64,000 nt of DNA from a virus. This document shows, one piece after another, positions 35,425 through 51,363 of this stretch. The stretch's first letter is position 1; the number at the start of each line of letters is the position of its first letter. Both the position numbers and the translations under genes were made by a program. The notes under the pieces were generated by a model. It was given only the letters and a program-made list of their open reading frames with translations, had not been told where the DNA came from and ran no database searches. The DNA lies in IMG/VR virus record IMGVR_UViG_3300005529_000029, positions 1-64,000 of that record. One strand, given 5' to 3'.

Positions 35425-35886
35425 GTCAGGTAATCGGAGCTCGGTCGTATTAGGTAACTACCTGATACTGCGCGAGTTACGGTCATTTTGATACGTCACT
35501 TCGACTAATTCACTCAAAAATGTCGAATAGACACACAGATTTGTTACCTTCGGTGACGATTAACCAGAATCGGGTCAGTTCGACTCAAAACCGGTTAATT
35601 GACCGTCTTTAAACATATCCACTCGTCAGGTAATATCTTGATAAGTGTACATAATAAGACGTTTAGATACAGTAAGATAGGGATTATCTAGCGTAAGCTA
35701 TTACAAATAAAGCGTTTATCGTGACTTATGGCATGACGGTTGTATATAAGGTAGGTGACTCTAAACGAGTTCGGTCTCTGACAATCCATTACCTATAAAC
35801 CTGACTGTCTCATATTGTACGTCATTCTGACAGGAAAGACGGTCAGGTAATGACAGGTGACTGGGTTCGACCGTTCTTTGACAATC
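35425..35886. repeat. Dispersed GTCAGGTAAT repeats and two boxA-like motifs in a non-coding block
   Basis: GTCAGGTAAT at 35425, 35625, 35842; GGTCTCTGACAATC at 35773 and GTTCTTTGACAATC at 35873. Confidence 0.6.
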
Positions 35887-40755: not shown

Positions 40756-41204
40756 CCTTTTGGGGTATACATATTATGCAAAATACAGCAGAATTGGATA
40801 AGAGTCTGACAGACCATCCTGGAACTATTGGTGGTGGCGCCGTCGTCAAGGTCTGGAATGAACCTGAAGGCAAGTTCTACACGATCCAGCGTGAAGACAG
40901 TTCAACTTTCCGGCTTCAGATCTTCCATGATCGGCAAGCATTAATCAACCGCCTTTCTGAGCTATTAGCAATCTTCAGAACGAAATTTGGAATACCTAAG
41001 AGCTGCGATCCTGGCGTTTATATTCGAGCATTAGGATACCGAACTGCCGCAAACGACATTGAACACATCTCTGTGGCTCATCTTCTGCTACGGCTTCCAG
41101 AAATCTCTCCTGATGCTGCGGTAATTACCAATGACGATATTAACGCCTGGCTTGAACCTCTCGGTCTCTATTTCGAGCCAAGGGAAAGTGAGCAATCCCA
41201 ATGA
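40752..41204 (+). CDS. Hypothetical protein
   Basis: Operon position. Confidence 0.5.
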   Translation: MTFWGIHIMQNTAELDKSLTDHPGTIGGGAVVKVWNEPEGKFYTIQREDSSTFRLQIFHDRQALINRLSELLAIFRTKFGIPKSCDPGVYIRALGYRTAANDIEHISVAHLLLRLPEISPDAAVITNDDINAWLEPLGLYFEPRESEQSQ

Positions 41205-41395
41205 AGCCACTTTATGCAAATACCTGTGGTGATTGCGGGAACCGAATAATTTCCAAGTCTATCTGGACACTTCCATTGCTCTTAATTTGGCACGATCTCA
41301 ACGTTCATGGACTTCTATTCACCGATGCCTGGAACCCTCGCAAGATCATCAGTCGCCACCATAAAACAAGACAACGAGAAAGAGAGGGCAAATAA
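41201..41395 (+). CDS. Hypothetical protein
   Basis: ATGA coupling. Confidence 0.4.
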   Translation: MKPLYANTCGDCGNRIISKSIWTLPLLLIWHDLNVHGLLFTDAWNPRKIISRHHKTRQREREGK

Positions 41396-41397
41396 TC

Positions 41398-41643
41398 ATG
41401 ACCAAAGAACAAGAGATCGAGCAGGCAAGACGGCAATATGACGCTTTAGGGCAATCATGTGATCGATTGCTTCAGGCTCAGATCAAAGCTCAATCAACCG
41501 GCAACTGGCCTCTCTTCAAGAAGATCAGGGATGCTCACTCGCGAGTGGTCCAGCGCCGGCGCTACCTGAAGGTTCTAATAGAAGTTTTACCAGGAATCCA
41601 GGGACAAGAGCCAAATCCGCGTTCAAAGTCTTTTTGGCGTTAA
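41398..41643 (+). CDS. Hypothetical protein
   Basis: Operon position. Confidence 0.5.
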   Translation: MTKEQEIEQARRQYDALGQSCDRLLQAQIKAQSTGNWPLFKKIRDAHSRVVQRRRYLKVLIEVLPGIQGQEPNPRSKSFWR

Positions 41644-41650
41644 AGCTGAC

Positions 41651-41679
41651 TTGATTTTGTAAACATTTAGTGATATATT
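41651..41679 (+). promoter_or_regulatory. sigma70 promoter upstream of the structured RNA
   Basis: TTGATT-17-TATATT with TG extension; ACATTTA at 41663 and 41693. Confidence 0.65.
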
Positions 41680-41684
41680 AAGAC

Positions 41685-42457
41685 AATACCGGACATTTAA
41701 GCTCTAGAGCCGGTATTCAGCCTCAAGTTCGATTTCGGCGGAGTTCCAATGACAGGCAATCAGCAAATACACACACAGAGATTGTCCTCTGATTACCTGC
41801 TGGGACTCCGCTCTGAGTTTCCCCTGGCGGGAAGGTCTATCCGAATCCATAAGCAAAGGAAAGGAGAGTGCGCATACAACCAGGTGGGCGCTATAGACTT
41901 CACCGATGTCCTGGGCATTTACGCGGAAAACTGCCGTAGTGGTTTCCCTGAGTCCAGATCGACATCTGCCGAGATGCGTCCTGAAATGGTTTCTGGAGCT
42001 GTGATGCTTGAAAACGTAGAGCATCGCCAAGGGTTCACAGGCATGAGGTCGGTTGCTCGACCGGTTTGTGAGAATCGTAAATCCCCGCGCTCCATGGCCA
42101 AATTTAATCCCATAAGACTTTGGGATCGCACAACACTCTTTGACAAAGTGCCGGAGCTGGAATCCAGAGAAGTACACGCTGAAGTCTTGTAAAAGACGAG
42201 TCAGCCTGGAAACACAGTGAAATCGGCCACGTCTCAGGAACAGAGCTCTTAAACTCACCTGAGGCCCATTTCGCCGTCATCGCGAACGGACACCGGAGAA
42301 AATAGTATCCGGGCCAAGCCGGTCTAACCACGGTAGCGATGAGTCGGGCGACGTATGCGATTTTTTCGTTGACCATGTGATTACGACAAAGCAAGTAGTC
42401 GACAGTTTGGCTTTATATGGGAGATCGGACTATCGAAGCGGTCTCCCATCTTTTTTT
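41685..42457 (+). ncRNA. Large structured non-coding RNA candidate (class unassigned)
   Basis: More than a dozen nested stems with G-U pairs and a GTAA tetraloop between a promoter and a terminator; no convincing ORF. Confidence 0.7.
42417..42457 (+). terminator. Intrinsic terminator
   Basis: ATGGGAGATCG...CGGTCTCCCAT-C-TTTTTTT. Confidence 0.85.
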
Positions 42458-42523
42458 AATTTGCTTATGGATTTCGATAGACCGCACAAATCAAATTTCA
42501 ATGGAGTCAGGAGACAGACCACC

Positions 42524-42730
42524 ATGCAAAGAACCGGCAAGTATATATGTTATTTCCTACAGAGTGATACGAACAAAGAATTTGACTCGCTGCAGTTAGC
42601 ATTAGAGGCTGCGAGAAAATACGTGGGGAATGCTGCCTATACTAAACCATTCCCACACGAAGAAACATATTTGTTCGGTCCTGGCGATGGTACAACTAGC
42701 GTCACAGTCCGGGAAAAAATCATATTCTAA
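42524..42730 (+). CDS. Hypothetical protein
   Basis: AGGAG RBS before ATG 42524, a more likely start than 42377. Confidence 0.55.
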   Translation: MQRTGKYICYFLQSDTNKEFDSLQLALEAARKYVGNAAYTKPFPHEETYLFGPGDGTTSVTVREKIIF

Positions 42731-42744
42731 AATTAGAAGCACAT

Positions 42745-43167
42745 ATGTCCCAAACTATAGAGATTCTTGAAAAGCAGATCGAGGAGCTGAGGTTTCAGCT
42801 TCAACAAACGAAGGATCGTGAAGCGAGTCTCCTCAGATGGATTAAAGAGATTCGTGATTGGGTAGAGGAACAAGAGGCTTGTATCCAATGCGATGACTTT
42901 TTATATTGTGAAAAGCATGCATTCAATGGTTACAAGATCGATGTGATGGGTGCTTATGAGTCCTACCTGATGCTGCTCCAGAAGTTCAAGAAAGTATCAT
43001 ACAAAGCAAATCAGGCAATAGAGTTCCTAACCTGGCTCGATGAGTTCATATCAAGCGAGACCGCTACAGTTCAGGCAATCTCCACCGTCGAACTAATTCG
43101 GGAGCGAGTAACACTGATCAAAGAACAGATGGAGTTTAATGATGACACTTCAGCAAATAAAGGCTAG
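42745..43167 (+). CDS. Hypothetical protein (coiled coil, CxxC...CxxH)
   Basis: Operon position. Confidence 0.55.
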   Translation: MSQTIEILEKQIEELRFQLQQTKDREASLLRWIKEIRDWVEEQEACIQCDDFLYCEKHAFNGYKIDVMGAYESYLMLLQKFKKVSYKANQAIEFLTWLDEFISSETATVQAISTVELIRERVTLIKEQMEFNDDTSANKG

Positions 43168-43417
43168 AGAGCAGGTCGCTCACTTCTCTTTTGCCGACGT
43201 TAATAAGTGCTTTATCGCAATGGGATTTCATCACGTCACAAGTATCTATGGTGGCATTCAGAGTGAAGCTGGGATCCATATCTATGCGAAGAATCGTTCC
43301 AGAATCCTGGCGATCAGGAATGGCAGCGACGGAATATGGTCATTCTATCACGAATCAGGCAAGGCATTTCTTGATCGAATGATCGGCGTTAAGAGTGAAC
43401 TGGAGAAACTCACATGA
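43139..43417 (+). CDS. Hypothetical protein
   Basis: GGAG RBS. Confidence 0.55.
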   Translation: MMTLQQIKAREQVAHFSFADVNKCFIAMGFHHVTSIYGGIQSEAGIHIYAKNRSRILAIRNGSDGIWSFYHESGKAFLDRMIGVKSELEKLT

Positions 43418-49405: not shown

Positions 49406-51049
49406 ATGTCGGCCATAATAGAAGTGCAAAAACCACAGCATAGGAAAGAACGAGCTAACCCGGACTGGCCGGTTAAGGTCTACTCATATTGGATTGAGCC
49501 AATAGGCGATATCCCGGAATGGTTTTGGTTATTCCATGATCATATGCAACTACTCTGGAACGATATGGTGATTGCGCATGATGCTTTTATTGACGAACGT
49601 GAATTCTCTGAAGAATCAGATGGGAAATGGGATACAGATCGTAAACGGCTTGAATTCTCTGGCCTACGTGAGAAGCTCAAGAATGTGGCCAAGTCTAAAA
49701 AGGGTATTCTTCCTAGCTCATGCTATTATGAGGTTAGGGATCGATTTCTCATCACGATGGGCAGATATTGGAATCCTGACTCCACACTAAAACGCAGACG
49801 AAACGAAACAAAGAATTTCGATCTTGGGCGACCTGGAATGAAATTTGGTCGCAATAAAGTACTCATCCCACATGATTTGAATGCTGCAAATATCTCAACG
49901 TCTATTCTCTTTTCTAATAAAAAACCTCTCACCATTTTGCAGCGCACAAAACAACAGGGGCCGACGCGAGGAATTTTTGAGACACTCGGTTATAACTTTA
50001 ACTTTCGCATCAATCTTCATCGGCCGATTCCAAATGGTAATATCAAGCGTATCGCTATTGTCGGGGAAATGGTTAAACCATTTGGATGGCAGTGGCGACT
50101 GAACCTGACCATTGAAGAGCCACCAGTAAGACCTCAAAGGAAGAATGGTAGGGTTGCAGCAATCGACCTTGGATGGCGTTTAATGGACGATTGTATTCGA
50201 ATAGGCGTGTTAGTTGATAACAGTGATAATGCTATTGAACTATCCATTCCGCTGGATTTTGCGAATAATTCGCTAAGACGTCAAAGAGAGCATTTCATGG
50301 ACGTGACCGATGCATGTCTTCCTATACATTCTATTCCAGACATCTGGAAAGCTCAACAGGAGTCAGACCTCATCTTAGAAGTCTGCAAAAATCGTCTAAC
50401 CGCTCTTATTCCTGAGCTTTTACCAAATAAGGTTGCATGGGATAAGGCTCGACATAAGAGTCTTATTAAGTTACTCAATACATTGCGGGAAGATCATCCA
50501 GAGAGTTCCGCAATTGCAGTTATAGAGCAGTGGCGTACGACAAACTGGGTTCTACATAGAAGATGGCGGGCAGCATATGAACGATTCATGAGATGGAGGC
50601 GTGAAATCTACAGAGTCCTGGCTGCGGAGATTGCTTCTACGTATGACGAGATCGTTTTAGAGGATCGTTTGAATCTAGCAGAGATGTCGAGAGACGAACA
50701 GGCACCACCAGCTATCAAAGCAAGTCAAAAATACCGACACTGGACATCGCTTTATCTCTTTAAAGAATGCTTAAAATATGCGATGGATAAACAGCAAAAA
50801 CTCATTATCGCGGGTAAAACTGCTTACTCAACAGCAACTTGCTCAACCTGTGATGGTAAGATTAATACCGATGCTTCACTCTATCTAACCTGTGCTAATG
50901 GGCATACCTTGGATCAGGATCTTAATGCAGCGCGAAACCTATTAAAATCATATCCAGAATGCGAGAGCCTCCCAGGGTTAGAGTCGCCGATTAGGCACTC
51001 GCAACTTTCTAAGTGCGTTAGGACGCTAAGTCTTTTAAAATCACTATAA
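49406..51049 (+). CDS. cas12m: Compact type V CRISPR effector, Cas12m (V-U1/V-M)-like
   Basis: RuvC-I IDLGWR (D254), RuvC-II VLED (E419), Zn finger C479/C482/C496/H500, RuvC-III DQDLNAARN (D505); LWND and HRPIP motifs; array 9 nt downstream. Confidence 0.8.
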   Translation: MSAIIEVQKPQHRKERANPDWPVKVYSYWIEPIGDIPEWFWLFHDHMQLLWNDMVIAHDAFIDEREFSEESDGKWDTDRKRLEFSGLREKLKNVAKSKKGILPSSCYYEVRDRFLITMGRYWNPDSTLKRRRNETKNFDLGRPGMKFGRNKVLIPHDLNAANISTSILFSNKKPLTILQRTKQQGPTRGIFETLGYNFNFRINLHRPIPNGNIKRIAIVGEMVKPFGWQWRLNLTIEEPPVRPQRKNGRVAAIDLGWRLMDDCIRIGVLVDNSDNAIELSIPLDFANNSLRRQREHFMDVTDACLPIHSIPDIWKAQQESDLILEVCKNRLTALIPELLPNKVAWDKARHKSLIKLLNTLREDHPESSAIAVIEQWRTTNWVLHRRWRAAYERFMRWRREIYRVLAAEIASTYDEIVLEDRLNLAEMSRDEQAPPAIKASQKYRHWTSLYLFKECLKYAMDKQQKLIIAGKTAYSTATCSTCDGKINTDASLYLTCANGHTLDQDLNAARNLLKSYPECESLPGLESPIRHSQLSKCVRTLSLLKSL

Positions 51050-51058
51050 ATTGCCGCT

Positions 51059-51289
51059 GTGACAACTCTTGCTCAACCGAGTCTCGGTTGAGACACTGCG
51101 CTGCCAATTCCTTGGCGGAAAGCTCAAAAAGTGACAACTCTTGCTCAACCGAGTCTCGGTTGAGACGTCTTGCCTCTGCTTCTCTCCTCGAGCCTTTCAC
51201 TGGTGACAACTCTTGCTCAACCGAGTCTCGGTTGAGACAGCGGAGGACGCGAGCGACAGCCTACCCTAATCCGCGTGACAACTCTTGCT
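51059..51289 (+). CRISPR. Mini CRISPR array: 3 full repeats, 1 truncated repeat, 3 spacers of 36 nt
   Basis: GTGACAACTCTTGCTCAACCGAGTCTCGGTTGAGAC at 51059, 51131, 51203; first 15 nt at 51275. Confidence 0.97.
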
Positions 51290-51363
51290 GAATTTTATTA
51301 ATGAATATATAATTCTGCTGGTTATCATTGGGTTATCTTTTTGAACGAGAGTTTGACGGACCT

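Follow-up and report, generated by a model that had tools for sequence, protein, structure and literature searches.

In phage lambda, the terminator tI lies inside the sib site, an RNase III site by which int is retroregulated, and this site is completed only by antiterminated transcripts that pass tI. In rRNA operons, which are boxA-antiterminated, the helices flanking 16S and 23S rRNA are cut by RNase III. Inverted repeats are also part of systems that act as DNA. Invertible switches have a standard anatomy of 20–30 bp inverted repeats around a few hundred bp, and a unit of a few hundred bp bounded by inverted repeats is also the form of MITEs and of small mobile elements in phages, for example the MPMEs of mycobacteriophages. 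To which of these should a long-range inverted repeat in the non-coding DNA of a phage be assigned? Here, we describe such a repeat in IMGVR_UViG_3300005529_000029, a linear IMG/VR phage record of 75,239 bp that is about 79% complete; the window is the whole stretch of DNA that was analysed, namely the first 64 kb (64,000 nucleotides) of this record. An earlier note on the window, made from the sequence alone, had pointed to a 24-nt pairing that becomes available only after terminator read-through, and had proposed a two-state RNA switch, with an invertible or MITE-like DNA element as the alternative.

The locus resembles lambda sib in that a helix of a size suited to RNase III is predicted to be complete only after read-through of an intrinsic terminator: transcripts from a local promoter would stop and escape, whereas antiterminated ones from upstream would form the helix. 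In silico, the terminated RNA lacks one strand of the helix and the read-through RNA contains a helix of at least 20 bp, as in a sib-type site. The two differ in geometry and in target. The lambda helix is a local hairpin extending the terminator stem and its target is the upstream mRNA, whereas here the partner strand lies 600 nt upstream and a large, probably non-coding segment is enclosed, cleavage and antiterminator both being hypothetical. As in an rRNA processing stalk, sequences far apart would pair around a large stretch of RNA, in a helix that exceeds 20 bp, and the transcription unit also has a boxA-like motif. However, the 5′ strand lies here about 148 nt inside the predicted transcript rather than at its edge, the terminator is within the stalk, and no known family includes the RNA enclosed; the boxA-like motif is found between the strands and not before the 5′ one, and two further + strand copies lie 6 kb upstream.

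The inverted repeat and its place in the early gene block

The phage has its structural genes on the − strand to about 33 kb, followed by a long + strand block of small early genes. Its terminase is at best 38–41% identical to that of any phage or IMG/VR contig, and most of its early proteins are orphans, so the lineage appears to be isolated. No non-coding gap in this block is larger than the one that contains the repeat (41644–42523). A script count reproduced the complementarity reported earlier exactly, in coordinates, sequences and pair counts: 41834–41857 faces 42460–42483 with 22 Watson-Crick pairs, one G-U pair (41843:42474) and one C-C mismatch (41842:42475), and 23 of the 24 core positions pair in silico. 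As DNA, the repeat extends over 29 nt at 86% (41834–41862/42455–42483). On the RNA, the U-tract of the terminator also pairs with a purine tract (41858–41866), giving a helix of about 33 nt that runs outward from the foot of the terminator hairpin. The 5′ arm (41834–41866, + strand) thus consists of the core 41834–41857 and the purine tract, and the 3′ arm (42449–42483, + strand), which is complete only in read-through transcripts, consists of the U-tract part 42449–42457 and the core 42460–42483. The predicted duplex energy is −39.6 kcal/mol for the 33-nt arm and −33.6 kcal/mol for the 29-nt arms.

The 24-nt repeat is confirmed as real and above chance. The 75,239-bp record contains no other 24-nt inverted repeat with up to two mismatches at a spacing of 30–2000 nt, and the best repeats obtained when the genome was shuffled 15 times by dinucleotides matched at 18–20 of 24 positions, against 22 of 24 in the real sequence. 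The analytic expectation for an inverted repeat of at least 22/24 is about 1.4e-3 per genome. Further copies of the arm were absent from the window when up to three mismatches were allowed.

Between the arms, close to the 3′ one, lies an intrinsic terminator (42417–42457, + strand) with an 11-bp stem (42417–42427/42439–42449), an 11-nt loop, a C and seven U residues (42451–42457). It was read from the sequence and from folds, the automated scan with its loop limit of 8 having passed over it; the hairpin is present in both the MFE and the centroid folds. On the − strand the hairpin has no U-tract after it, and thus the terminator is one-directional. The core of the 3′ arm starts 2 nt past the last U, within one base of the 3 nt given before. 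At the other end of the gap, the consensus scan found a promoter-like site (TTGATT-17-TATATT, its −10 preceded by TG; 41651–41679, + strand), a consensus match of a kind that is not enriched across the region; from it a start near 41686 is predicted. The transcript predicted to run from there to the terminator (41686–42457, + strand) has 772 nt and is probably non-coding.

The unit is flanked by two small genes on the same strand. The upstream early gene encodes 81 aa (41398–41643, + strand); it is in the ORF list, its product is in the public protein collection and its codon score is 0.036–0.053. The downstream gene encodes 68 aa (42524–42730, + strand), with a Shine–Dalgarno (SD) sequence, GGAG, at 42510–42513, an ATG at 42524 and relatives of 55–60% identity that share an invariant block, EETYLFGPGDGTTSV; judging from these relatives, it is a real, conserved small protein. 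The family is small and conserved and matches neither Pfam nor PHROG. The scan found no terminator-like site 3′ of the 81-aa gene on the + strand, so that upstream transcription can enter the unit, and no promoter-like site was found by consensus scan in 42458–42523, between the terminator and the 68-aa gene, so that expression of the latter seems to need read-through. Consequently, read-through transcripts are to be expected, originating from the local promoter or from upstream.

Two predicted states of the transcript

In the terminated RNA (41686–42457), the 5′ arm has a mean P(unpaired) of 0.55, and 12 of its 24 nt are unpaired with a probability of at least 0.9. The latter value is reached throughout a 9-nt hairpin loop (41849–41857), which is perfectly complementary to the nine bases of the 3′ arm that are transcribed first. 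The description of the 5′ copy as largely a loop therefore holds in part. Opening the 5′ arm costs 7.6 kcal/mol, which ranks 7 among 63 windows, and an overlapping window at 41842 is the cheapest to open in the whole RNA. In models of the read-through RNA, the long-range pairs have probabilities of 0.8–1.0 with either start point, and the additional 30 nt carrying the 3′ arm lower the MFE from −262.3 to −286.8 kcal/mol and the z-score from −2.7 to −5.3, values that come from thermodynamic folding, which is unreliable for RNAs of 800 nt and ignores kinetics. The helix encloses 41858–42459 and leaves two stable 5′ hairpins (within 41686–41812) outside. The proposed two-state switch thus has its anatomy in silico, with the 3′ arm past the terminator, a helix that dominates once the arm is present and a 5′ arm that is easily opened. 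The folds do not separate a function of the RNA from one of the DNA, because the same helix would be predicted for any inverted repeat in transcribed DNA. When the remainder of the genome was searched for targets with which the open 5′ arm could pair in trans, none stood above shuffled controls.

What could such a helix do? We favour, tentatively and at somewhat less than an even chance, a reading in which the repeat acts as + strand RNA, forming an RNase III-type stem for processing or retroregulation like lambda sib or the rRNA stalk. Transcripts that stop at the terminator (42417–42457) would be devoid of the 3′ arm, with half of the 5′ arm open, including the 9-nt loop. The 3′ arm would be added by leaky read-through or by antiterminated polymerases coming from the upstream early operon; its first nine bases would match the loop, and a helix of about 24–33 bp could then zip up, so that the interior of 600 nt would be closed and the terminator hairpin would stack on the helix. 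A helix of such length would be a typical substrate of the host RNase III. Cleavage would excise the unit from the polycistronic transcript, split the cistrons upstream from those downstream and lead to the maturation of the RNA enclosed or to its destruction. The logic would be that of sib retroregulation stretched over 600 nt, or that of an rRNA processing stalk.

Several features point to such a function at the RNA level. The genome has no second repeat of this kind and none of the shuffles equalled it, and from a 3′ arm only 2 nt past the U-tract the pairing continues over this tract to the foot of the terminator hairpin. The high pair probabilities, the shift of MFE and z-score on addition of the 3′ arm and the low cost of opening the 5′ arm agree with it, as do the one-strand early block and the missing promoter-like site before the conserved next gene, by which read-through transcripts should exist, and the over-representation of the boxA-like motif in early non-coding regions. 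Of the two imperfect positions, one is a G-U and can pair in the + strand RNA only, but a single G-U has no statistical meaning. Against the RNA-level reading, a homologue of the region was found in no collection searched, so that there are zero compensatory changes to show; the segment enclosed does not stand out in structure within this genome; and the limits of folding named above apply.

A more elaborate possibility, which we regard as unlikely, is a non-coding RNA of the phage that is switched in time. Here the active species would be the terminated form of 772 nt, transcribed from the unit's own promoter and displaying the 9-nt loop. After read-through by antiterminated early transcription, this loop would nucleate the helix across 600 nt, and RNase III would remove or remodel the RNA and also separate the cistrons on either side. 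If true, this would be sib-like retroregulation of a large non-coding RNA over a long distance. If the helix is a real processing site, the sib principle of a nuclease site completed only by read-through would extend beyond the lambdoid phages, would act across hundreds of nt and would govern a large non-coding unit instead of an mRNA. A U-tract followed directly by the complement of a loop further upstream would then be a simple signature by which read-through-dependent RNA switches could be searched for in uncultured phages. If, on the other hand, the arms are the ends of an inserted element, the case would be an ordinary one.

The segment between the arms

Is the interior a gene or an RNA? 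An ORF of 147 aa (41749–42192) lies inside the unit and is annotated as a gene in public collections. It has no relatives among 5.8 billion proteins and no family match. Its codon log-odds of −0.017 falls inside the distribution for spurious ORFs (−0.04 on average, sd 0.08) and is exceeded by 16 of the 18 small early genes. Models of the protein are unfolded (pLDDT 0.27 in the Atlas, 32 with AlphaFold2), although models from a single sequence are often poor. Coding by this ORF is thus unlikely in view of its missing relatives, spurious-like codon score and lack of a predicted fold, and the unit 41686–42457 is probably non-coding, although a plausible SD sequence, GGAG 5 nt before the ATG, leaves some reservation about the ORF.

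The fold energy of the interior is below that of its own shuffles on both strands (z = −2.7 on the + strand, −2.3 on the − strand); when it is compared with all 772-nt windows of the genome after regression on GC, it ranks 15 among 193 (z = −1.45). Searching the 64 kb with Rfam 15 gave zero matches at the gathering score, and at E-values up to 10 only a chance match to a miRNA. The models suggest only weakly that the interior is an ornate structured RNA. The “RNA domain” that had been placed between the arms is thus a weaker candidate than the earlier note made it: it is not outstanding within the genome and has no Rfam family. The unit is reminiscent of GOLLD and ROOL of Rfam in being about 600–800 nt long, phage-borne and organized from promoter to terminator with no credible gene; it differs from them in matching no Rfam 15 model, in having no relatives and in a fold energy that is only moderately unusual.

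A stretch of the interior, 41931–41957, could pair with the sequence around the SD and start codon of the 68-aa gene (42501–42529; −27.6 kcal/mol). As evidence this was set aside, since 3.3% of shuffles equal it and the start region of another gene beats it; the pairing would cross the long-range helix as a pseudoknot. Also rejected was an effect of the helix in freeing the SD sequence of the 68-aa gene. The P(unpaired) of this SD falls from 0.70 in the wild type to about 0.35 when the 5′ arm is shuffled and returns to about 0.70 when the arms compensate each other, but this result is discounted because it is produced by the ban on pseudoknots in the folding model.

The boxA-like motif reported between the arms at 42135 was located there: ACTCTTTGACAAA (42135–42147, + strand) lies about 9 nt after a 6-bp hairpin and is boxA-like by resemblance. 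Its core, TCTNTGACAA, occurs five times in the window, against 0.85 expected, and the + strand copies, at 35775, 35875 and 42137 (42137–42146), are all in early non-coding DNA. Such over-representation would fit processive antitermination. The early leader, which is 550 nt long, contains two units of about 35 nt (35753–35786 and 35853–35886), placed 100 bp apart and each consisting of AGGTGACT, 12–13 nt and TCTYTGACAATC. The leader units and the copy in the unit could be nut/boxA-like antitermination sites.

DNA-level explanations and relatives of the locus

Pieces of sequence that match the window exactly were found for 41000–43200 in soil and mine metagenomes, in four DNA runs from three studies. 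The contigs of these four runs contained no nucleotide variants, joints or loose ends relative to the window; gaps in coverage were not counted as evidence, one run having both flanks without 41772–42524. In the data at hand the phage is geographically spread yet clonal, as identical pieces with zero nucleotide differences come from four runs and three studies. In addition, a contig of 102,742 bp in the public protein collection encodes the 147-aa ORF and both flanking proteins, all identical.

Relatives outside this clone are scarce. The region 41600–42560 had no blastn match among 50,697 phage records. The flanking proteins of 81 aa, 140 aa and 292 aa have no relatives in IMG/VR, and the 140-aa protein has none among 1.84 billion representatives; a 162-aa protein has a single relative, 40% identical, on a 2.1-kb contig with which no neighbours are shared. 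Fifteen records of IMG/VR terminase relatives, all at most 41% identical, gave chance matches to the unit only. The relatives of the 68-aa protein are on three otherwise unrelated phage contigs of 70–133 kb, with about 66% GC in the one profiled. Neither in these three phages nor in one MAG contig was there a match to the unit, and nothing comparable to the non-coding unit or to the inverted repeat was seen in the three phages within 1.5 kb upstream of the 68-aa relatives, one of which follows the end of a real gene (DUF7168) by 6 nt. Going by this comparison, the unit is not an obligate companion of the 68-aa gene. Nothing more is to be drawn from the three phages, because they are very distant (66% GC, other genes almost unshared) and their missing unit says little.

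Could the RNA pairing be a by-product of something in the DNA? The arms might be the terminal inverted repeats of a 650-bp MITE-like element, or the edges of a cassette inserted in the leader of the 68-aa gene. Like MITEs and MPMEs, the locus is a unit of a few hundred bp between phage genes that has inverted repeats and no credible transposase: the 24-bp arms, identical at 22 of 24 positions and starting with GG, surround 602 bp in which there is no credible gene. The GC content of the unit is 0.51, against about 0.44–0.46 nearby, and deletion of 41834–42483 would leave a plain order of promoter, leader, SD and gene. The three phages, with no unit within 1.5 kb upstream of their 68-aa genes, also fit an insertion, but at their distance this carries little weight. 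Unlike such elements, however, the locus has no target-site duplication of any length in its outer flanks (GGCGGGAA vs GCACAAAT) and no second copy of an arm in the genome with up to three mismatches. A 20–22 nt pattern of the arm was absent from IMG/VR, from 185,579 species genomes (GTDB) and from JGI metagenomes, plasmids and phages gave chance-level blastn matches only, and no contig of the four metagenome runs joined across an empty site. The MITE-like alternative thus keeps its terminal inverted repeats but has neither target-site duplication nor, in the genomes and collections scanned, other copies or empty sites, and we give it a rather small chance. A repeat without any function, left over for example from an inverted duplication or from a template switch in replication, would be tolerated because it lies in non-coding DNA. 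Its single copy, its two imperfections, the missing conserved relatives and the absence of any other long-range inverted repeat from the genome, CRISPR repeats apart, would suit such an origin. It is nevertheless improbable: the edges of similarity are sharp rather than decaying gradually, the placement is very specific, 2 nt past a U-tract with the partner in an open loop, and a stable helix would not be without effect in read-through RNA, even if it had not been selected.

The remaining explanations also make the arms sites in the DNA. As crossover sites of an invertible segment, they would allow 41858–42459 to be flipped, which would remove the terminator and turn the downstream genes on. 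The arms fit the standard anatomy of such switches, and the terminator hairpin when reversed would have no U-tract after it. On the other side, the 75-kb record encodes no serine or tyrosine recombinase (PF00239, PF00589), although at about 79% completeness one could sit in the missing part; the segment contains no − strand promoter-like site; and the off state would silence a long early block that includes the clamp gene, which would be costly for the phage. The low-depth contigs of the four runs showed no inverted-orientation joint, a weak argument as contigs drop rare forms. Taken together, these points make inversion very unlikely. Finally, each arm might be recognised in the DNA as an asymmetric site by a protein, for example a phage regulator that loops the DNA, as two near-identical 24-bp copies 626 bp apart and found nowhere else in the genome might suggest; this is the least probable of the explanations considered, as the 24-mer has no internal symmetry, no candidate binder was found and the sites are tied to no promoter.

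Two further candidates were dropped. Against a retron or DGR, no reverse transcriptase was found. A link of the unit to a Cas12/TnpB-like gene and mini-array at 49.4–51.3 kb was rejected too: the duplex between its repeat and the unit (−25.5 kcal/mol) comes with no shuffle baseline, and none of the three mini-array spacers has a near match (up to 12 mismatches) elsewhere in the phage genome. In its own right, this stretch (49406–51290) encodes a protein of 547 aa that is TnpB/Cas12-like, with PHROG transposase matches over residues 383–515, followed by three palindrome-containing repeats of 36 nt.
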